Assembly (NCBI GenBank): GCA_951406725.2
Contig: OX597818.1
Coordinates: 33,728,001 to 33,792,000, forward strand
Length of the DNA stretch: 64,000 nucleotides
DNA from: Octopus vulgaris
Taxonomy: Eukaryota
Direction of reading: 5' to 3'
Both the position numbers and the translations under genes were made by a program. Numbering within the stretch: position 1 is the stretch's first letter; every line of letters starts with the position of its first letter. The notes under the pieces were generated by a model, which was not told the origin of the DNA, searched no databases, and saw only the letters and a program-made list of their open reading frames with translations. This document shows positions 4,936 through 61,308 of the stretch, in pieces.

Positions 4936-5009
4936 GGTCGCACTGATGAATTGCGGATATTTACGCATGTATATATGTAAATGGTAACAATGAAATCTAG
5001 TATGTGACT
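4936..5009 (+). ncRNA. Type I hammerhead ribozyme motif, intact core
   Basis: Stem I GUCGCA/UGUGAC; CUGAUGA at 4943-4949; stem II AUUG/CAAU with inner AUUUAC/GUAAAU; GAAA at 4992-4995; short stem III; GUA cleavage triplet ending at 5002. Confidence 0.75.
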
Positions 5010-5263
5010 AATCAATGTATTTTGTATCTTTTCATTTGTCTTGCTCGCTTACATTCTGGCGTTTGCCGAATTTTCTTGAGAACAAAATTTTTCTTAGTCG
5101 TCAGACCATATGGGGTTTACATTTAGCATATTGGATGACCACTTAGTGATCATCCCTCTTATATATGTGTAATATAATTTTTCTGAATCTTCAGATATTT
5201 TCAATATGCCAGCCCACTGGTTTAAAATGATATTAATCAAATTAATATCAATTTTTTTACCCT

Positions 5264-5460
<197 letters not shown>

Positions 5461-5601: not shown

Positions 5602-5668
5602 GGTTATACCTATAGGTTTCGGATTTTTTTAGTAAATAAAATACTTAACTAAATCCTCATCATTAACC
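5602..5668 (-). ncRNA. Type I hammerhead motif with C3->A core substitution
   Basis: Minus strand: GGUUA-aUGAUGA-GGAUUU...AAAUCC-GAAA-CCUAUAGG-UA-UAACC. Perfect stems I and II; palindromic stem III ACCUAUAGGU. Confidence 0.75.
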
Positions 5669-6122: not shown

Positions 6123-6165
6123 CCCAGACACATGTTTCTAAGTCTTTGCTCGTCATCAGTCTGGA
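6123..6165 (-). ncRNA. Minimal type I hammerhead motif (decayed: G17 and a stem II mismatch)
   Basis: Minus strand: CCAGA-CUGAUGA-CGAG CAAAGA CUUA-GAAA-CAUGU-G-UCUGG; palindromic ACAUGU stem III. Confidence 0.7.
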
Positions 6166-9577: not shown

Positions 9578-10157
9578 TTCTACTCTAGGCATAAGGCCCA
9601 ATATTTTGGGAGAAGGAGCTAGTCAATTACATTGATCCCAGTGCGTAACTGGTACTTAATTTATCGACCGCGAAATGATGAAAGGCAAAGTCGACCTCGG
9701 CGGAATTTGAACTCAGAACGTAGCGGCAGACGAAATACCTATTTCTTTACTACCCACAAGGGGCTAAACACAGAGAGGACAAATAAGGACAGACAACCAG
9801 ATTAAGTCGATTATATTGACACCAGTGCGTAACTGGTACTTATTTAATCGACCGCTAAAGGATGAGTGGCAAAGTCGACCTCGGCGGAATTTGAACTCAG
9901 AACGTAGCGGCAGACGAAATACCTATTTCTTTACTACCCACAAGGGGCTAAACACAGAGAGGACAAACAAGGACAGACAACCAGATTAAGTCGATTATAT
10001 TGACATCAGTGCGTAACTGGTACTTATTTAATAGACCGCGAAAGGATGAAAGGCAAAGTCGACCTCGGTGGAACTTGAACACAGAACGTAGCAACAGACG
10101 AAATACGGCTACGCATTTCGCCCGGCGTGCTAACGTTTCTGACAGCTCGCCGCCTTA
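9578..10157 (-). mobile_element. Meta-domain-like tRNA SINE with tandemly reiterated ~184-bp internal unit
   Basis: Head AAGGCGGCGAGCTG.CAGAA.CGTTAGCACGCCGGGCG; conserved GTCGACTTTGCCTTTCATCCTTT...GATAAA.TAAGTACCAG repeated three times. Confidence 0.9.
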
Positions 10158-10866
10158 ATATTTCTATTAATATTAACATCAATATTATTGTTGTTACTGA
10201 TGTCGCTACTAAGCCAACGGGATTCCAGTCATAATATTCTTCTATTATCCTTCTTCTCTTTACAAATATTTTGAATCGAATGACAAAATTACCTAATGTA
10301 TCAAAGCTTTTCATTATATCTTATTTAGATATTTTTGTGACAATAAAGTGTGACAGCAAGGGAATTTTTACTTCTATTTCTAACACGTTCATTCGTAAGC
10401 GTGTTGTATTTATTTACGCTGTTGTTCCTACAGCTGGAGACACTTTTCGTTGTTGCTGTTATCCTTCTTTTCGCTACTGTCGCTGATGCAAACAGTTTTA
10501 TGGAATAAAATATATGTTTGACAGAATATAGAAATTTGACAGCCTTGAGACACGATAATTTTTTTTTTTCTCTCGCTTCTGCTTGTGTTGTACAGTGTAA
10601 TGTCTTAAGTGGTTCCATCTAATATTTCCATGTTTGACATGATTATTACTTTCTGACTCCAAGATCTTATTTTCGACAAATATTCCAATATTTCAAATAT
10701 TCTCATGCTGGCTGATCGCATGCTTTTCCAGACCTGTATATATTGACGCAATAGCATTTGTTGCTTCTGCTGAAGAGGTTAGAATGGTATTAGTGTCATT
10801 ATTATAGTTACTCTTCTGCTTGTTGTTGTTGTTGTTGCTGTTGTTATTATTATTATTATTATTATT

Positions 10867-11719
10867 CAGTAGTTTTATTTTTTATAGCGTGCTTTCACTT
10901 CCCTACCGAGCGCAACTCTGTGTGCCTTGGGTATGTGCTGTGATTTGTTGTGATGCTCTGATGGTTATTGTATGGAAAGTGTTCTGCGTAGGATGTATGC
11001 AGTGCCTAGTAGTGCAATTTTCTGTATGTTATGTGTGTTTGCAAGTCCTGGTGATTTTGTTATGTATTTGTGTGAATATTTTTTTATCATGCCTAATGCA
11101 CCTACTATGATAGGAATTGTTTCTGTTTTTAGATTCCACATTCTGGTTACCTCCATTTCCAGGTCTTTGTATTTTGAAAGTTTCTCCCTTTCTTTTAGAG
11201 ACACGTTGTCATCTGTCGGTATTGATACATCAATTAGAAAGCATTTTTTTTTTCATGATCTCTGACAACTATATCTGGTCTGTTGGCCTTAATTTTTCTG
11301 TCTGTGTTTGTCGGCATATCCCAAAGTATGGTTGCTTTTTCGTTTTCTGTGACCTTTTCTGGTGTGTGCCTATACCATCTTTTTTCTGTTGTTATTCCAT
11401 AATGTTGGCATAGCTTCCAGTGTATGTAGGTCCCAACTCTGTCATGTCTGTGAATATATTCCTTCTTAGCCAGGACTGGGCAGCCAGAGATAATATGATT
11501 TATTGTTTCTTGTCCATCTCCACATATTCTGCAGTTACTTGTAATATTTCTTTTCTTTACATGTTTTTGGTAATTTCTGGTGGGGAGGCTTTGGTCTTGT
11601 GCTGCAATTAAAAATCCCTCTGTCTCTGCTTTGAGTCCGGAGCTTCTCAACCATTGCTGGGATTTTTCTTTGTCTATTTCTTTTGCATTTAGTTTAGTCC
11701 AGTATTTACCGTGAAGGGG

Positions 11720-11720
<1 letters not shown>
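10867..11720 (-). mobile_element. 5'-truncated R4/Dong-clade non-LTR retrotransposon (CCHC knuckle, restriction-like endonuclease, 3' UTR)
   Basis: ORFs 11234..11809 and 10965..11204 give KPLHGKY..WLRSSGLKAETEGFLIAAQDQ, CRICGDGQETINHIISGC, RHD, NRPDIVV, KLSKYKDL and PIIVGALG, with one frameshift. Both ends abut (TTA)n. Confidence 0.92.
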
Positions 11721-11769
<49 letters not shown>

Positions 11770-11772
<3 letters not shown>

Positions 11773-12590
11773 GGCGGCGAGCTGGCAGAATCATTAGCAC
11801 GCCGGGCAAAATGCGTAGCCGTATTTCGTCTGCCGTTACGTTCTGAGTTCAAATTCCGCCGAGGTCGACTTTGCCTTTCATCCTTTCGGGGTCGATTATA
11901 TAAGTACCAGTTACGCACTGGGGTCGATATAATCGACTTAATCCGTTTGTCTGTCCTTGTTTGTCCCCTCTGTGTTTAACCCCTTGTGGGTAGTAAAGAA
12001 ATAATTATTTCGTCTGTCTTTACGTTCTGAGTTCGAATTCCGCCGAGGTCGACTTTGCCTTTTATCCTTTTGAGGCCGATAAAATAAGTTCCAGTGAAAC
12101 ACTGAGGTCGATATGATCGACTACTCCCCTCCTCACAAATTTGAGGCCTTGTGCCTAAAATAGAATGCATTATTATAGTTACTCTTCAGCTTGTTGCTGA
12201 TGTTATTATTATCATTATTAAGGCTGCGAGCTGGCAGAATCGTTAGCACGCCGGGCGAAATGCTTCGCGGTATTTCGTCTTCACGTTCCGAGTTCAAATT
12301 CCACCGAGGTCGATTTTGCTTTCTTCTTTTCGAGGTCGATAAATCAAGTACCAGTGGAGTACTGGGGTAGATGCAATTGACTATCCCCCTCCCCCAAATT
12401 TCAGGCCTTGTGCCTGCAGAGCGAATCATTATTGCGAGCTGGCAGGATCGTTAGGGCGCTGAACGAAATGCTTTGCGGTATTTCGCCCGTCGGTACGTTC
12501 TAAATTCAAATTCTGCCGAGGTGGCTTTTGCCTTTCATCCTTTTGGGGTCGATTAATATTTCAGGCTTTGTGACTAAAGGAGAAAGGATT
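11770..12590 (+). mobile_element. Cluster of three Meta-domain-like SINE copies, the first with an internal reiteration
   Basis: Heads (AAGGC.)GCGAGCTGGCAG at ~11771, ~12219 and ~12434. Confidence 0.9.
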
Positions 12591-21564: not shown

Positions 21565-21780
21565 TTTAGCACGCTGGGCGAAATGCGTAGCCGTATTTCG
21601 TCTGCCGTTACGTTGTGAGTTCAAATTCCGCCGAGGTTGACTTTGCCTTCCATCCTTTCGGGGTCGATAAATTAAGTACCAGTTACGCACTGGGGTTGAT
21701 GTAATCGACTTAATACCTATGTCTGTCCTTGTTTGTCCCCTCTATGTTTAGCCCCTTGTGGGTAATAAAAATAGGTATTG
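21565..21780 (+). mobile_element. Meta-domain-like SINE (5' truncated)
   Basis: Matches 11790-12005. Confidence 0.88.
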
Positions 21781-25052: not shown

Positions 25053-25721
25053 GAAAAGAAATGGAGCAATAAATATCAATGAGAAGTTAATCATTGGTAT
25101 TAAAAGGTCATAGTTTAATTGTAGTTCACATGCATTTACAGCTGTTTCTGTTTATTAAATCGAAGTAAATTTGCATTTATCTCGTTCCATTTAACAAACA
25201 TCGTCAGAATGATTTAGAAGAATATAAATAGGAGAAAAGAGGAAATGAAAAGAAATGGAAAAGGAAAAGGAAAAGGCAAAAGTAAAAGTAAAATGTTCGC
25301 TAAGTCTTTAGCTTACATTTTTGTGACTTGTGTTCCACGTGTTTGTATGTTTCTTCAATTAGATGAATGGATATATATATATATATATATATATTGAGGA
25401 ATCTAGACGGCCTCTACTTAAAATGAAAACTGAGATCAAGAAGTTTATTATCACTCCAAACAACTTTTGAATGATGCATCATATCTCTTCGGCAATACCT
25501 AATAATCACCAAACATCTTGCTAGAAAGAAGCTCACAGAAAATTTTCATACTTCAAAATCTCATAATCACAAATAATTTGTAAGGTTACTGGTAGACTCC
25601 CTCATCTAATCATAAATGAACTTCAAGCGTCTAGTCGCAGATACGATGTTCTGAGAAAGCGAGAAGAAATTATGCAAAATAATTGAAATCAGTAATCTAT
25701 TAAATATTAATATAATATTAG

Positions 25722-28564: not shown

Positions 28565-29416
28565 TGTATATATATATATATATAGATACATACATACACA
28601 CATACACGCATATATATATTTATATATATATATATGTATATATATATATGTATGTATGTATATGTATATATATATTTGTCGTTGTATGTATATGTATACA
28701 TATACATATTTGTGTCGCCTCTATGAGCATTGAGTTGTTCGATGACCTGAACAACATACTCATTGAATTAATTTGTGAAGTGGCCTGTCAAAATCTTAGG
28801 AAATGTGTACACGAATTTAAAATCAGAAGATATAGAATATGTAAATATGTAACTGTGATAGCTGAATGCGATTGACTCAAACGAAACTATTGTGAGCATG
28901 CATTGTTGTTGTATATCATTAAAACAAACTAATGATTGCGTCCATTAGCGAGTCCGATACCGTAAGATGTTGAATTTACATATAGGAGCCGTTTGTATAT
29001 ATGCAGACAGATTGTCATATGCATAGGAGCGGGCCAAGACACACAAGAAAATACTAAACGGACTGTACGGACGAGAACATTATGGTTATATACATCTACA
29101 TAGAAATGTCAAAGAAAAGGGACACATATTCATTGTTGTACATTTATGCGTATTAATTTCGAAGCCGTATGTGTGTGAATGTATAATTAATAACGTCCCT
29201 AGATTCAGGGAATTATGAGTTACAAACGGGCCAAACCATTGTTAATCGAGAGACAAATTAAAAAGGAAGTTGTGTTAAGACAATGGAATATTAATACAGC
29301 GTCTCTCTGTCTTGTGTGTATTTGGATTGAGTTGATGCCATCTGTTACCGAGAGAAAGACTCTCCGAAGTCTATAATGTGGATTTTTCTCTCTCGCTCTC
29401 TCTCTCTCTCTTTTTC

Positions 29417-29466
<50 letters not shown>

Positions 29467-29576
29467 CATTTACATATATACCCACACACACACATATATA
29501 TATATATATGAATATATATATATATATATGTATGTATATATATATATATATATATACATATATTTTTACATACATA

Positions 29577-31277
29577 CAAAAAAAATTGAGTACATCAACA
29601 TTGAAGATGATGATATCAAACTAGCCATAGATGAGATTGACACAAACTCAGCTGCTGGACCTGATGGATTTCCAACGATCCTTCTCAAATCGTGCAAACG
29701 AGCCCTTACAAAACCGCTACAGCTTCTTTTTCAGAGCTTTCTTGCAAGTGGTAAGCTCCCAGTCAAATTGAAAAAAGGGGTAATATGTCCTATCCATAAG
29801 GGAGGTAGCAGAGCAGATGCTAAAGATTATAGGCATATCTCTCTGACCTCACACATCAGCAAAGTCATGGAACGAATAGTCCGCAAGAAACTAATCATGT
29901 TCCTTGAAGAAAATGACTTGCTGTCTGACACCCAGCATGGATTTCGACCAGGTAGAAGCTGCCTAACACAGCTCCTGCAACACTATGACTGGGAGTTAAA
30001 ACAGCTACTAAATGGCTCAAATGTGGATGTAATATATCTCGACTTTGCAAAAGCCTTCGATAAAGTCGACCACGGTATGATCTATCACAAGCTGCGTGGT
30101 CTCGGTATAGGCGGAAAACTTGGAGAGTTGCTGCACAACTTCCTAAAAGACAGAAGACAGGCAGTTGTGAGTAATGGAGCCACCTCCAAGGAAACACAAA
30201 TAACAAGCGGTGTTTCACAGGGTACTGTCTTGGGGTCACTGCTGTTCATAGTGGCCCTTTCAGATATGCCTTCAGTTGCTACGATGGCCACCCTTGCTAG
30301 CTATGCAGATGACACAAAAGTGTCCCACACAATACAAAACCCTGAAAATATTGCGCTTCTGCAACAGGAGTTGGATACAATATACAGGTGGGCTGAGGAC
30401 AACAACATGCAGTTTAATGCAGGTAAGTTCCAGGCCCTGCGCTACCTAGCACACAAAGGTAAACGACGTGCAGATTGGATACACTGGCCCAAGAAGAATT
30501 GCAATCCCTGAGTCAAAATCAGTGCGTGATCTGGGCATTGACATGAGCAATGATGCATCTTTCCAAGTGCATATTACTAATCTGGTGATAAAATGCAGAC
30601 GGCTGGCTGGATGGATTCTCCGAACTTTCAGAACAAGAGAGAAGGAGACACTGATGGTCCTCTGGAAAACATTCGTCCCCAGCCGCTTGGACTACTGCTC
30701 CCAACTATAGTCACCACACAATATAAAACTAACAGCAGAACTTCAAAGAAGCTACACAAAGAAGATCGTCTGAATGCAAAATATCAGCTACTGGGAAAGA
30801 CTGAAAGTATTAGACCTCTTCTCCCTAGAGCGGAGGCGGAAGAGATATGCGGTGATATACATCTGGAAAATCCTGGAGGGTCTTGTCCCAAACTTTGGCA
30901 TTCAAACCGCAGAACGGGGCGCCACTGTATGGTGCCAAAGATTCTAACATCCCCATCAAAATACAGGTCCAGATACTGCAACAGCTTGGGTTTCAGAGGA
31001 CCACAGCTCTTTAACATCCTCCCTAAATGCCTGAGAGATTACATAGTGTGGATATGGGTTTCTTTAAAAATAAACTGGATCCCTTTTTGTCGGGGGTCCC
31101 AGATGAACCTACCTCACGACAGGAAACGCAGATGCGGGCAACAGCATCGAACTTCCTTGTTGATCAAGTGCCACGTATCAGAGGTGGATTCACATATTAG
31201 TGTAGCTCATTCAGCGGTGGTGACCCTGCATGGCCGCGGCCTTCGGGCTAAAACATTTTTAAGGATTTAAGGATTTA
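29577..31277 (+). mobile_element. 5'-truncated CR1-group LINE (RT domain and 3' end), disrupted
   Basis: ORF 29378..30511: [54 protein letters not shown]. Continuation ...RLDYCSQL* and LERRRKRY across frameshifts and a stop; 3' (TAAGGATT)2 tail. Confidence 0.93.
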
Positions 31278-34494: not shown

Positions 34495-35045
34495 AATGTG
34501 TGTCCGTCTGTCAGTGTGTTTCCCTAAAACCTGAGAACTACACAACCAATTTCATTCAAATTTTACACATGGCTTACTTAGGGTCCGGGGAGAGTCATCG
34601 GCAAAAAGATTTAACTTTTTGCCAAAGGCGAGCCCACAGTAATGACATATCTTCTCCAGTATTATTCCCTAAAACTTGAGAACTACACTACCAATTTCAT
34701 TCGAATTTTACACATAGCTTACTTAGGGTCCGGGGAGTGTCATCGGCAAAAAAAATTAACTTTTTCCTAGGGCGAGTCCATAGCAATATCATATCTTCTC
34801 CACTATTTCAGTATTACGTGCTAAAATTGAAACAAAAACATCTCTCTATTGTAATGTCAGATACTTTCACTTTAATACTGAAACTATTAAAGACGAACTA
34901 TTATATAAGAGGGATGAACCATTAACAGTGGACATCCATTTTGCTAGAAGAAAATCCGCTATGGTCTTATATGCTACACCACCGGTTTTCAATTCATATT
35001 AATCAAATTAATATTCAATTTCTCACCCATATTATTTTAAAATTA
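34480..35045 (+). mobile_element. Helitron-like 5' segment with ~145-bp tandem direct repeat
   Basis: ATATATAAACTGAGAATGTGTGTCCGTCTGTC start resembles the start at 2486; repeat units begin TTCCCTAAAAC at ~34519 and ~34665. No 3' end seen. Confidence 0.6.
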
Positions 35046-38572: not shown

Positions 38573-39200
38573 GTTAAGTTAAGTTAAGTTAAGTTGATTT
38601 TTTGGCTCAAAAAGCAAAAAGCAAGGCCATGTAGGGGGACATGGAATTATGTACAGTGAGGGTGTTCATGCAAAGAGTTCAGGCCATTTCTTGTCAAGAG
38701 AGACTTTGAAACGAGCGGTCGTCGGCATCTTCACTCTCTCGTCCGGCAGCTTATTCCACGGATCCGCAACCCGGACGGAGAAAGCCCCTCTCCTTCGATT
38801 GAGATGAAATCATTGCAGATAGAGCTTTTTGGAGTGACCCCCGCAGCCGACGCTCTGGAGCAGGAGTGAAGAACAGCTCTTTCGAGAGTTTACACTTTCC
38901 GCTTATGATGTTGTGAGCGAGAATGAGATCACCACGGCGTCGTCGATTTTCTAGAGAATAAAGGTCGAGCGTCTTCAGCCTCTCTTCATAGGACAAATGC
39001 TTGAGACCAAGAACCATGCGGGTAGCCAGCTTCTGGACTCTTTCGAGATGATGTATGTCTTTGAGGAGATAAGGAGAAGAGGCTTGAATCCCGTACTCCA
39101 ATATAGGTCTCACCAGAGTGACATAGAGCGGTATGAATATGGCTGCTGTGAGCATTCCGAATGACCGTCGAATCAAAAACAGAATTCCGCGTGCTTTGTT
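38573..39200 (-). mobile_element. 3' fragment of a CR1-group LINE with (TAACT)n tail
   Basis: ORF 38751..39176: LYVTLVRPILEY..SPYLLKDIHHLERVQKLATRMV..LSYEERLKTLDLYSLENRRRRGDLI; tail GTTAAGTTAAGTTAAG at 38573-38595. Confidence 0.92.
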
Positions 39201-39466
39201 ATCTCCCTTTCACTCCGGCTTTTTCTTCTTACCATTTCAAGTTGAACTCTTAACCCATAATATTTTATTCTCTCTCAGTGTGTTTCGTTCCTTTCCGTTT
39301 TTTTCTTTTTTCTTTCTTTCTTTTTTGTTGCCCTTTCAATCCTTCCTGTCGAAGAGCATGGTGTCGGGACGTCAAAGACTTTTCCATTCTTCCAGAGAGT
39401 TAAACTAATACACCTGCTTGTTGTTTTTTCGCCTGTCTTCGTCTTTTGTTTTCTGTAAATTTGAAC

Positions 39467-39948
<482 letters not shown>

Positions 39949-40082
39949 TAATCGACGTCACAAAAGTGACGGAGGGTACTGACTAGCATGGCTTGTGCTA
40001 AAATAAGTGTTAAATTAACTCGAAATCCACTAAAACATTATAGTTAATGAATGACAAAGTGAGGTAAGTCCCTGTCCTACAT

Positions 40083-40138
40083 AGCCGTACCGCGATTTCG
40101 AATTTCGGTGCAGACTACCTTAATCCTCATCACCGGCT
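40083..40138 (-). ncRNA. Type I hammerhead motif with C3->G substitution
   Basis: Minus strand: AGCCG-gUGAUGA-GGAUU..GGU agucugc ACC..AAUUC-GAAA-UCGCGG-UA-CGGCU. Confidence 0.75.
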
Positions 40139-40540
40139 CTTAACACCCAGGTTTAAACTCCACTTCTTCTGTGAATCTTATAAGAAAAACCGTTGAAATC
40201 GTGTACTGATTTTCAAAACGCCAAAAGTGTAAACAACAAATTAAAAGGGTGGCAATGAACGCTAGGGACTTACCTCCCTTTGTTAGTCATTAAGTATAAT
40301 GCTTTAGGGGATTTAGAGTTAACTTAACTCTTATTGTAGCATAAGCGGTGCTAGTCGACACCCCATCCCATCACTTTAGTGATCTCGATTCATTTTGCCT
40401 TTAGGTTCTAATTGCTAATAAGCCACCCTTTTAATTTCTCTGTTAAACACTTTTACTTTTTGAAAATCAGCACATGTTTTCAACGGTTTTTCTTATATCC
40501 GTATCGTTTCCCACTCCATGTTTTAAAGACGCTAGGTCTT

Positions 40541-40592
40541 GGGGTCTGAGGATACGCCATAAAGGTACGCTTTGTGGCAAGAAACCGACCTT
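40541..40592 (+). ncRNA. Type I hammerhead motif with deleted cleavage-site nucleotides
   Basis: GGGGU-CUGAGGA-uac-GCCAUAAAG guacg CUUUGUGGC-aa-GAAA-ccg-ACCUU; 9-bp stem II. Confidence 0.65.
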
Positions 40593-40719
40593 CACACATA
40601 CACACATATATAAACAGCAGTTTGCAATATTTCACCAAAAGTGAAAATTATAATTATAAATGTGACAAGAGTGTTATTACTAGAAATAAGAGCTAAAATA
40701 TTCTAATGCTGTAGTCCAC

Positions 40720-40985
40720 GGTTTAGTCGGAGGAATTGGAATCGACTCCATTACTTATTCTTTTAAAGCTGGTTCTTATTCTATCGCACCCTTACACCGT
40801 ACTGCTAGGCTATGGGTTCGGAAACGTACCAACACCGGTTGTCAAGCGGTCGTGTGGGACGAAAGCAAACCCAAACACACACGTTCAGATATACACATAC
40901 ATACATGGAGGGTTTTTTATTCATTTGTGTCTACCAAATCCACAGAAATTTTGGTCGGCCCAGAGCTCTGGCAGAAGATATATGT
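40720..40985 (-). mobile_element. Decayed CORE-type SINE
   Basis: ACCAACACCGGTTGTCAAGCGG...GTCTACCAAATCCAC...TTGGTCGGCCC. Confidence 0.7.
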
Positions 40986-41082
40986 GTGAGCGTAAGGGAT
41001 TATTTTAATTGAATTAAAACCTAGTGCAACAACAATTTCTTTTTAAATCAGTGCATATATCCATGCTATAGACACCAGTACA

Positions 41083-41530
41083 TCGAACCCAGTGCTTAAC
41101 TGGTACTTATTTTATCGATATCGAAAGGATGAAAGGTTAAGCTGACTTGAGCGGAATTTGATCTCAGAACATAAAGATTTCAAATTTTGGCGAAATTACT
41201 TAGCGGTATTTCGTGTCCTTACGTTCTGAGTTCAAATTCCGCTGGGCTCGACTTTGCCTTTCATCCTTTCGTGGTCGATAAATTAAGGACCAGTTACGCA
41301 CTGGGGTCGATATAATCTACTTAAATCCGTTTGTCTGTCCTTGTTTGTCCTCTCTGTGTTTAACCCCTTGTGGGTAATAAAGAAATAGGTATTTCGTCTG
41401 TGTTCAAATTCCACTGAGGTCGACTTTGCCTTTCATCTTTTCGGAGTCGATGAATTAAGTACCAGTTCCGTACCGGGTCGATCTAATCGATTTGCCCCCT
41501 CCCCCAAATTTCGGCCCTTGTGCCTAGAGT
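41083..41530. mobile_element. Two Meta-domain-like SINE pieces in opposite orientation (minus ~41083-41170, plus ~41190-41530)
   Basis: GAAAGGATGAAAGG on one side; GACTTTGCCTTTCATC twice on the other. Confidence 0.85.
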
Positions 41531-41916
41531 AAAAAAAAAAAATATTTTAAAATTTACTTTCCTACAACTATACTTCTTGATAGTCATATTTCCATTAGCT
41601 TTTTGACAATCATCAATATTCATGCTTGCTAGAAATTTTTTCCATTAATTTTATGACAATCGTCAATATTCGTGCATTCTTAATTTCCGCATCACACAAT
41701 ACTAAAGCTGTTCTACGTTGCAAAACTTCTATTTAAGTTGATTGATAAGTTCCTTTGCCGAACATTTTATGAAGCTTCTCTTTAGAGAAGTACAATCCTT
41801 TAGGCATTAAGTTAAACAACATAGGATAACCGAAGATACGGGTGTTGGCAGTGTAAGGACCTAACATAGTTATATTATGAAATTATTCAAAACGCATACA
41901 CTTACATACGTATATA

Positions 41917-42151
41917 CAGGGTGGCCCAAAAGTAGGTCTACAGTAATTCAATTATCTCATGCGCATTCATATATTAACAGCTTAGATCTTAATTATAAAA
42001 AAAATATGTAACCATTATTGTATGCTAATTTAGTTAATTTTGTCAACTCCATTTCCAGCTTGTAATATAGAAATGTAAATGTATTAAAATGTTTTAAAAG
42101 AAATTTAAAGTGCCTGCGTGATAATTGTAAACCTACTTTGGGGTCACCCTA
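41917..42151. mobile_element. Tc1/mariner MITE
   Basis: TIRs CAGGGTGGCCCAAAAGTAGGTCTACAGT / ATTGTAAACCTACTTTGGGGTCACCCTA, flanked by TA. Confidence 0.85.
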
Positions 42152-49810: not shown

Positions 49811-50786
49811 ACAACCGGAAAACGTTTAAAAAGAAGGATCCATTCTAGATCGTTCTTATATTCCAAGACTTTGGATTGACACATGTTATCGACTTTAGTT
49901 GTCTTTAGATTATCAACATTGCTTGAGAAAATCTTGAATCTAATAAGTAAGTTTATTCATGTTTTTCACATCACTATATTGGAAACTGCACCACAATTGT
50001 ATTTAGCATATAACTTTACATCTTGGGGTAAAATTTCTCAACACCATTTTCTTATATTCATGATCAACGTTGCTTTTTCTTTTTTATTTCTCTTCCCACT
50101 GGCCATCTCTAACTCTAGTCAAATTAGGTAGAAATCTACCACCGAGAAAAGCTAATAAGACTGAAACAAACCCGTTGCTTATAGCAGCTGGCTTTTAAAA
50201 CAAGATTCATTCCTACCTCCGTTGTCTTTATTCTCACCAAATTTTGTTTATTGGAGTTACCTCCGATGTTGATTGTTTTTTTTATTTTGTTTTGCTTCTT
50301 ATATGCACATATGCAGTGGAGTTTGAAGTTCAGCGCAACGTCATCAGTTTTGTCAAGAAATAGTACGCAAAAATACAATGTTCTCTTCTCATGACCTCAT
50401 AGCTGCCTTCAGTTTTCCTTTTTTATATCTTTAGTCAATGATCCGTGCAGGACCTCCAAGACTTGTGAGACTGAGACTGATAATGTTCCGTTTAGACAGT
50501 TGCAAGCGAACGCCTGGAAACGACAAAAACATGAACAAAGAGATGGCCGTTACTTTGGAAATGCTAGATAAATCATAGAGATTAGTGGAAAGAAAAAAAA
50601 GGTGATCGTACTACGAATGAAAGGGATAGGGATGCAATTGGGCCAGTAAGAAGCGCATCAATGCTGTTGGCATAAAGAGTAGCCAGCTACACAGAGCAGA
50701 GAGTGTTATAGTAGCAACAGAAAGGACAAAGAGAGGAGACAACATGCCAGTGATCGAGACGCTGAAGCATATCCTTTAGTGAAATA

Positions 50787-51201
50787 TGCTATTTCTTTAC
50801 AACCCACAAGGGGCTAAACACAGAGGGGACAAACAAGGACAGACAAAGGGATTAAATCGAGTACATCGACCCCAGTGCGTAACTGGTACTTAATTTATCG
50901 ACCCCGAAAGGATGAAAGGCAAAGTCGACCTCGGCGGAATTTGAACTCAGAACGTAACTGTAGCCGAGATACCTATTTCTTTACTATCCTCAAGGGGCTA
51001 AACACAGAGGGGACAAACAAGGACAGACAAAGGGATTTAGTCGATTACATTGACCCCAGTGCGTAACTGGTACTTAATTTATCGACCCCAAAAGGATGAA
51101 AGTCAAAGTCGACCTCGGCGGAATTTGAACTCAGAACGTAACGGCAGACGAAATACGGCTACACATTTCGCCCGGCGTGCTAACGTTTCTGCCAGCTCGC
51201 C
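50787..51201 (-). mobile_element. Meta-domain-like SINE with reiterated internal unit
   Basis: Two copies of the CTATTTCTTTAC...GAACTCAGAACGTA unit, then the head. Confidence 0.92.
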
Positions 51202-53429: not shown

Positions 53430-54790
53430 ATTTGGTAAATGATGTGTTGCTCAAACGATATTCATTGTTCGAGTACATTGCTTGCCAGAAACATTGTGAT
53501 TGCTAACTACACTTCTCTTATGGAAAGTAAACCAACGAGGCTCATCACATCAGTTGATTGCTGATCGACGGTATGAATAAAAGCTATCCAAGTGAAATTG
53601 TTTCTGATGACGACAGCGAAACAATATCTCAGACGTCTAGCTGTCTGATTAAGCAATATCGCCGGATAATTTAATATCTAGGACGTTTCTGTTCTTCATA
53701 GTCTATACTTTCAGGATATAAATTATCATTGTCCATGACATTACATATTATAATACATTTATATCCGCGGCATATAAATATCAATACGAAATGTACTGGA
53801 ATTAGATTGCTTCCTCTCTTTTGGTCTGAGAGTAAGTTTTGTTTATATACGCTCTCGAAATATATTCGCATTGTCTCGAATAATTTCTTTCTATTACATC
53901 CAATGATGTTGAAATGCTTTGCATATCTTTGTTTTGTAAAATCAAGATCTTTTATGTGGGCAAGTTGATATTTTATTAAGCTACATGTTGGCTGTTGGAA
54001 TGAAGGTGATCAATGTGTACGATTTCGCTTCTGGTGTGAGATTTCGAGAACAAATGGTTTATGTAGAATTAGGTGACCTTAACGCTATTATGTATGGGCG
54101 GATAATGTATTACTGGACTTAAACAATTCTTCGTTACAATATTAGCTATATTAATGTTGTTTAATTGATCAAACAAGATTACCTCCTGGGTTTGCTATAA
54201 TACAGGGGATGCTCCTGGTATGCTACATTTTCGCAACTCTACTTGTAGACATTGCAGCAATAAGGAACACCCTGTTTAAAATGCCCAAGTTTGAGGCTGT
54301 AAATTTCCAATTATAATTGTAAGATGGAAATAGAGGTACAATATTCTTTAATTAAATCTGGAACATAGAAGATCTGTGTATTTAAATTATGTCTTTTCTT
54401 TACTGTGGGTTTTGTATTAGCTAATAGTTTTAATCTGGTATCACAGCTAAAATGTTTACTATACTAAATATAGTCACGTTTGATTCATATTTGTATATTC
54501 TTGTTAAATCCTCTCTAATTATCGTAGTTTCCTGTTAGATCCTCTCCCTTTTCTAATTGGATGATAATCCTCATTTCTTTCAGGATAAATACCTCAAGAA
54601 TATACTTTAATTCACTTTTGGAGGAGTTGACCAGTATTTCGAGATCTGAAAGAAAATTGTCTTCTGACCATTGTGATTATTTGTGTTTCCTCATCACGAT
54701 GCGCTCTTTTACTTTTAGCTTCAGAGATAGTCCCGAGTTTACGGTATTATAGGCAGTTGGATCGTTATTTATATGTTTCTATGTTTTAGT
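53430..54790 (-). mobile_element. Possible highly decayed Penelope-like element (RT to GIY-YIG region)
   Basis: Minus-strand remnants in the expected order: KYILEVFIL (~RYIDDIFI), YK/KPT, LIKEYCT (~LA.RICT), NLI...ICRG (~NLIY.I.C.GC). Many stops; weak. Confidence 0.4.
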
Positions 54791-61266: not shown

Positions 61267-61308
61267 CTCCAGATATGTTTCGGTATTATTCTGATCTCAT
61301 CAGCGAAG
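61267..61308 (-). ncRNA. Minimal type I hammerhead motif, intact core, weakened stems
   Basis: Minus strand: CUUCG-CUGAUGA-GAUCAGAAUAAUACC-GAAA-CAUAU-C-UGGAG. Confidence 0.55.

Follow-up and report, generated by a model that had tools for sequence, protein, structure and literature searches.

The stretch of Octopus vulgaris DNA analysed here (64,000 nt, hereafter the window) holds, near position 40,250, two decayed copies of an abundant repeat, most likely a retrozyme, arranged back to back and now fossil. In the explanation that we consider probable, both derive from a non-coding octopod non-LTR retrozyme of about 335 nt, and were inserted together by a Penelope-like enzyme acting in trans. 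The unit reads ribozyme-A-spacer-B-linker-ribozyme. To judge by its sequence, the family works like a non-LTR retrozyme, and most likely is one; it is not an autonomous Penelope-like element, and analogy with known systems suggests that its enzymatic mobility is probably provided by such elements.

Layout of the Locus

Comparison of the region with the window by BLAST resolved two pairs of inverted repeats (Table 1). Segments A and A' (39947-40086 versus 40393-40251) are identical at 113 of 143 positions (79%, E 7e-30), and segments B and B' (40179-40253 versus 40497-40422) at 67 of 77 (87%, E 2e-18). The repeats are interleaved in the order A-B-A'-B', which bears out the inverted arrangement described in the first-pass annotation. 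Read in ribozyme sense, the left copy is B-linker-ribozyme-A, from 40253 to 39947, where it meets (TA)n, while the right copy is A'-spacer-B'-linker-ribozyme, from 40251/40254 to 40592, with a CA/TA stretch next to its end. The right copy had been thought to begin about 14 nt past the equivalent cleavage site; instead, it begins 1-5 nt past it, as the homology of A' reaches back to 40251-40256. No further copy of the A/B unit or of the left-type core was found in the 64-kb window.

Table 1. Features of the locus, with positions numbered along the window.
Feature	Positions	Strand	Remarks or basis
(TA)n microsatellite, probable insertion target at the 3' end of the left copy	39892..39946	.	sequence
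Segment A, left copy	39947..40087	-	141 nt downstream of the cleavage site, ends at (TA)n
Extended helix I, left copy	40070..40152	-	40147-40152 pairs with 40070-40075
Left type I hammerhead	40083..40138	-	predicted cut between 40088 and 40087; G at core position 3 (40133)
Left linker between B and ribozyme	40139..40178	-	
Segment B	40179..40253	-	5' end of the left copy = 40253
Junction of the two 5' ends	40251..40253	.	three bases fit both copies, possible microhomology; no microsatellite between
Segment A', right copy	40251..40393	+	starts 1-5 nt past the equivalent cleavage site
Spacer joining A to B, 28 nt	40394..40421	+	
Segment B'	40422..40497	+	
Right linker	40498..40540	+	no significant likeness to the left linker; short distal-helix-like motif near 40530-40539
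Right hammerhead-like motif	40541..40592	+	helices I and II and the two core boxes present, cleavage triplet lacking; further copies elsewhere
CA/TA-rich flank, probable target at the 3' end of the right copy	40593..40610	.	sequence

A Non-Coding Repeat Family in Head-to-Tail Form

Parts of the stretch are contained in 20 of the 24 sequencing runs listed, from four organisms. The contigs of four runs were aligned to the stretch at 80% likeness, namely three DNA runs (organism A twice, organism C once) and run X21. The three DNA runs, with 40.6, 23.6 and 29.8 million records, yielded 1038, 1201 and 1303 family contigs, most of them less than 95% alike, and X21, which is RNA by guess, yielded 66, again mostly below 95%, a result that speaks neither for nor against expression. 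In organisms A and C, depth was present in 30 of 30 bins, the right ribozyme included; summed contig depth is not taken here as a copy number.

An ORF-less unit of about 335 nt is abundant in two organisms, and it exists head to tail in one contig among the pieces listed. This contig, record 1 of run X1 (665 nt), spans both ribozyme regions and is composed of the pieces 40132-39948 and then 40220-40081 on the same strand, that is, ribozyme-A, 61 nt, and B-linker-ribozyme; a gap of 62 nt would be predicted from the right copy, and the repeat period is 334 nt, within the range of about 150-450 bp for non-LTR retrozyme units. A second contig passes from 40250 to 39947 through 31 spacer-like letters, so that the start of B is joined to the end of A. 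Hence, the permuted monomer proposed at first pass does recur with A and B in tandem order elsewhere, and its predicted length of about 340 nt from cleavage to cleavage was measured at 334-339 nt (335 nt when summed from the two local copies, 339 nt in the right copy). Moreover, joints between the spacer and left-type B were found in both organisms, at 39957/40392 and at 40243-40248/40426-40432 (records X1 6, X2 22 and X13 15). The tandem evidence consists of one contig and one joint among those listed (32 of 4027 pieces and 15 of 144 joints), and long arrays were absent from the same pieces and joints.

No ORF of at least 100 aa lies inside the unit, and a 65-aa frame at 40447-40641 has no Pfam match. 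GC content is 37% in the 2-kb bin 40001-42000, which holds most of the unit, and thus under the 50% that bounds non-LTR retrozymes. A pattern scan of prokaryote genomes for two B motifs gave no match, and the sole metagenome contig matching them (L001, 1-3062), which has a phage-like gene context and no BLAST similarity to the window, was dismissed as chance.

These data bear on the possibility that both halves are 5'-truncated pseudo-LTRs (pLTRs) of an autonomous Penelope-like element, the ORF-less tandem being a rare by-product with no retrozyme life cycle. Minimal hammerheads 100-700 bp apart on opposite strands have already been linked to truncated Penelope-like elements (Cervera and de la Pena 2014, PMC4209133), and such elements often leave inverted 5'-truncated copies (Craig et al. 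2021, PMC8557442). In addition, the arrangement B-ribozyme-A-(TA)n gives the left copy the look of a pLTR, and the contigs listed include just one tandem. However, the right copy passes from A through the 28-nt spacer to B with no ORF, a link that recurs in contigs of both organisms, and the ribozyme has an extended, covarying helix I, not the minimal form typical of Penelope-like elements (PMC7761336). We consider this origin unlikely.

The deepest coverage of the unit was found at 40387-40438, corresponding to the spacer and its neighbours, with a sharp drop beyond. Of the X13 contigs, 26 depart from the unit at 40432, and the letters that follow form a TA-rich consensus (agreement 0.62); in X1 and X2 the consensus at this point is mixed. 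The drop and these exits hint at a second preferred 3' end, resembling the Penelope 'tail', that many copies would share, about 10-20 nt inside B and 45-50 nt beyond the point where the left copy stops. Regarding the divergence between the two local copies, left A departs from the family majority at 14 places, and right A' carries the majority base in 10 of these; in the reverse comparison, left A carries it in 5 of 8, four right-hand rows beyond the ungapped register being excluded. Because the other copy mostly keeps the majority base, much of the 21% divergence between A and A' represents independent decay.

The Two Hammerhead Motifs

We then focused on the ribozymes. The left motif comprises a 5-bp helix I, a 5-bp helix II with an inner hairpin, GAAA, a 2-bp helix III with a palindromic tetraloop, and the triplet GUA. 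It is one of four descriptor matches in the window, compared with a mean of 0.12 over 50 shuffles, and 0 of 5000 shuffles of the 105-nt spacer that holds it gave a match, using a descriptor that was chosen after the motif was seen and let any base stand at core position 3. By analogy, the left ribozyme copy is very likely dead, because it carries G at core position 3 (window 40133), where C is canonical, and a C3G change abolishes cleavage in a Penelope hammerhead (Frangieh et al. 2024, PMC11167929).

The family differs from this copy. Core position 3 is C in 1904 of 2144, 741 of 867 and 1641 of 1825 depth units (29, 32 and 31 contigs in the three DNA runs), i.e., the canonical base accounts for about 85-90% of family depth. 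Majority letters, taken per column without phasing among the rows listed (40 of 307, reaching 40391), also turn the U-G pair of helix III (40095/40090) into U-A and add one inner pair to helix II. In addition, distal helix I has 4 of 6 pairs in the left copy versus 6 of 6 in the family majority, and the pair 40148/40074 is G-C in the former and A-U in the latter, both sides having changed. Although its columns are unphased, the family majority of the left type reads as a canonical-type hammerhead apparently under structural selection. The concern that consensus ribozymes might turn out non-canonical is thereby eased by the majority C for the left type, which is the one type that this comparison covers.

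The right motif contains a CUGAnGA box, a 9-bp hairpin, a GAAA box and a 5-bp helix I, and 0 of 5000 shuffles matched its descriptor, which was also relaxed after the motif was seen. GAAA and helix I are separated by just 3 nt and the UH cleavage triplet is missing, so that the motif in its present form is unable to cut. Both ribozymes at the locus are broken. The earlier identification of two hammerheads, on the minus strand at left and the plus strand at right, is retained for the motifs themselves, neither of which is canonical here; their stems do differ and their positions do agree, but the fold is shared just partly. Rfam reported no hammerhead at gathering score in the window, nor at E <=10 in 39000-42000 and 40050-40170, and weak matches to Rfam miRNA/snoRNA families were attributed to chance. 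The right motif might alternatively be read as type III, with the upstream GUC at 40536-40538; on inspection this was discarded, as the 7 nt available leave no room for a helix I hairpin.

When the right copy was folded as a circle, 0 of 10 tested helix I and distal helix pairs rose above 0.001; the predicted pairing of its two ends via distal helix I was absent in folding and was rejected. Its folding stability as a circle was modest, at z -1.98, and that of the left copy corresponded to z -0.1, no better than shuffles, decayed copies being a poor test of this property.

The segments consisting of linker plus ribozyme have no detectable similarity between left and right, as 66 of 500 shuffles reach their alignment score. 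Such a result would be in agreement with two independent insertions, or a later rearrangement, with 40498-40592 stemming from a different ribozyme-bearing repeat, a fragment of which was added to B'. The presence of several other unrelated hammerhead elements in the window, the beginning of another abundant repeat at about 40608, and the lack of a joint between left-type B and the right linker among those listed point in the same direction. Nevertheless, the right motif lies at the same distance from B (48 nt to the ribozyme core, versus 45 nt at left), keeps the distal-helix-like motif and closes a copy of exactly unit length (339 nt), and the two 5' ends overlap by three bases, with no intervening microsatellite. 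Overall, separate origins for the two halves seem improbable to us.

Ends and Junction

The two divergent copies are joined 5' to 5', a Penelope-like terminal arrangement, and both outer ends lie in TA/CA repeats, at one locus of a microsatellite-rich genome. No target-site duplication is readable at the locus. The 3' end of the right copy falls at the ribozyme, about 135 nt off the end of the left copy, whereas the Penelope tail difference is 30-40 nt. No single contig among those listed covers the whole stretch, as could be expected if the structure were an assembly artefact or a chance palindrome. However, the arms are just 79-87% alike, X2 record 19 (39959-40354) reads through the junction and differs at 10 of 390 nt, and X1 record 7 (40468-40709) and X2 record 23 (40464-40709) match the stretch exactly, making an artefact or chance most implausible.

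Neighbouring Elements in the Window

Microsatellites and short repeats abound in the AT-rich animal DNA of the window. Further type I hammerhead-like motifs were observed at 4936-5009 (+), 5602-5668 (-) and 25133-25211 (-), each within a short TA-bordered element; the core is canonical in two of them and carries A at position 3 in the motif at 5602, and none is similar in sequence to the A/B unit. Short CUGAUGA...GAAAC motifs at 6127-6159 (-), 53604-53628 (+) and 61272-61303 (-) are like minimal Penelope-type hammerheads and fail the strict descriptor.

Immediately left of the locus, and flanked by (TA)n and (CT)n, 39522-39795 (+) belongs to a second short repeat family; nhmmer links it to 4937-5267 and 34901-35034 at E 1e-11 to 8e-3, and a degenerate hammerhead-like motif was noticed by eye near 39593-39660. 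On the other side, 40608-40716 is a fragment of another repeat, with the highest summed depth (40673-40720) and consistent loose ends on both sides; its 26 nt at 40635-40660 resemble part of B at a level of 73%. An abundant short interspersed repeat is present at 41079-41556 and in more than 10 places (among them 9581-10182, 11754-12557, 21566-21779 and 50781-51201), often neighbouring or in tandem, at 75-94% identity.

LINE remnants are found at 29336-30511 (+), with RVT_1, and at 11234-11848 (-), with zf-RVT at 11237-11848. The RVT_1 match (29600-30508) lies about 10 kb from the locus and a named relative is jockey-like; among the named matches listed (3 of 120), this reverse transcriptase is 68% identical to a protein from Argonauta hians, 66% to an 'Octop...' protein and 47% to one from a crab, which points to an octopod as the probable host. 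The segment 38751-39209 (-), which has no Pfam match, presumably resembles the C-terminus of a LINE reverse transcriptase.

A Proposed Route of Insertion

Under joint insertion by a Penelope-like enzyme, tandem copies would be transcribed and the hammerhead would cut the RNA to monomers, probably in dimer form because helix III is weak and palindromic; the monomers would perhaps be circularised. A Penelope-like reverse transcriptase/GIY-YIG nuclease, provided in trans, would cut a TA-rich target, and cDNA would be primed from both cut ends. The two cDNAs would grow toward each other and be joined at the template-5' ends over about three matching bases, leaving outward-pointing copies. The two templates would represent subfamilies sharing A and B and differing in their ribozyme modules, with the right cDNA running to the self-cleaved RNA 5' end and the left one stopping early. 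The start of the right copy, 1-5 nt from the cleavage-equivalent site, is as expected if its template had a self-cleaved 5' end. Twin priming is a process known from work on L1; in its simple form, from one RNA, it fits poorly here and was rejected, since within the unit about 170 nt separate the outer end of one half from the start of the other, and the two halves carry different ribozymes.

The purified anole Penelope-like protein cut and extended both target strands and favoured AT-rich DNA, and reverse transcription began within the RNA about 90 nt past the hammerhead cut, at two neighbouring sites explaining the 'tail' (PMC11167929). The same work indicates that the anole element needs extra RNA for activity, in the region past its 3' end site. 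By analogy, the well-covered spacer region, just past the 3' end of the left copy, might be guessed to be a protein-binding site.

Several observations stand against the proposed route: the 3' end of the right copy is at the ribozyme, not 140-190 nt past it; the right circle forms neither ribozyme helix and the left copy folds no more stably than shuffles, whereas a high degree of self-pairing is described for retrozyme circles; and the search for a helper element was negative, 0 of the 148 ORFs in the window matching a GIY-YIG family. A different history may be suggested for the right copy, whose length is one unit, whose two ends both fall about 5 nt beyond the cleavage site, and in which the cleavage triplet is exactly what is missing. 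It could be the fossil cDNA of one full turn round a circular RNA that had been trimmed at the cut end before ligation, and so could no longer cleave, copied by a Penelope enzyme, with the ribozyme swapped as a cassette. We find this doubtful; if true, the locus, with two unrelated ribozyme modules on one conserved body and an insertion from two templates on both strands, would show directly at the genomic level that retrozyme circles are copied by Penelope enzymes and that ribozymes pass between retrozymes as cassettes.

Returning to the favoured joint insertion, the first-pass annotation had offered a retrozyme-like monomer or a Penelope inverted pseudo-LTR pair. The permuted monomer holds, and the alternatives largely merge, as retrozymes are described as non-autonomous derivatives of Penelope pLTRs in a preprint (Li, Clavereau and Pollet, bioRxiv 10.64898/2026.07.22.740005). 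Probably they are one thing, i.e., a retrozyme unit inserted in Penelope fashion.

Comparison with Known Systems

The element is of a known kind, apparently not yet described from cephalopods. We found no description of a cephalopod or octopus retrozyme or hammerhead family in largely open literature, and the family may already be catalogued as an unclassified repeat; the giant squid genome report (PMC6962438) counts 235 Rfam hammerhead loci, with no analysis in the part available. With four descriptor-matching hammerhead-like motifs in the window against 0.12 expected, elements of this sort may be plentiful in octopod genomes. As for the locus itself, it is dead, and nothing points to a host function.

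Non-LTR retrozymes were defined by Cervera and de la Pena (2020, PMC7229834), with units of 350-390 bp in mussel and 330/350 bp in axolotl. As in these, the octopus unit is non-coding, measures about 335 nt, carries one type I hammerhead, occurs head to tail and has low GC. Moreover, its weak helix III with a palindromic tetraloop is like that of axolotl HHR_Amex1, and two ribozyme variants on related units are likewise found in both. Unlike the retrozymes described there, the locus is inverted and not tandem, both of its ribozymes are broken and its modules are unalignable, and it is known here from its sequence alone.

The Penelope-style arrangement of an opposite-strand pair with an inverted truncated copy is already in print (PMC4209133, PMC8557442). 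The locus shares with such pseudo-LTR insertions the ribozyme pair on opposite strands about 450 bp apart, the inverted 5'-truncated copy, the TA-microsatellite target, a 3' end well downstream of the cleavage site and a possible tail (PMC4209133, PMC8557442, PMC11167929); tails and a bias toward (TA)n and other microsatellites are among the features that Craig et al. report for Penelope-like elements. It differs from Penelope pseudo-LTRs in having no reverse transcriptase/GIY-YIG frame, in that B directly follows A, and in combining an extended helix I with a short helix III.

The enzyme that moves animal retrozymes is still inferred: Penelope-like elements are named as likely helpers in PMC7229834, and the moving enzyme is listed as a limit of the study in the preprint, whose argument consists of co-occurrence and sequence trees in Xenopus and whose sampling, as given in the part available, comprises 31 vertebrates, 3 insects and 1 coral, and no molluscs. 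In this context, the locus, as a retrozyme unit in a Penelope-style inverted insertion within TA repeats and with one end at the site of the ribozyme cut, provides structural support for the Penelope-helper model in a mollusc lineage. Inverted retrozyme insertions are not discussed in the portion of the preprint available. Nonetheless, it predicts exactly such a hybrid and, as in the octopus family, reports many dispersed monomers and fragments besides arrays.
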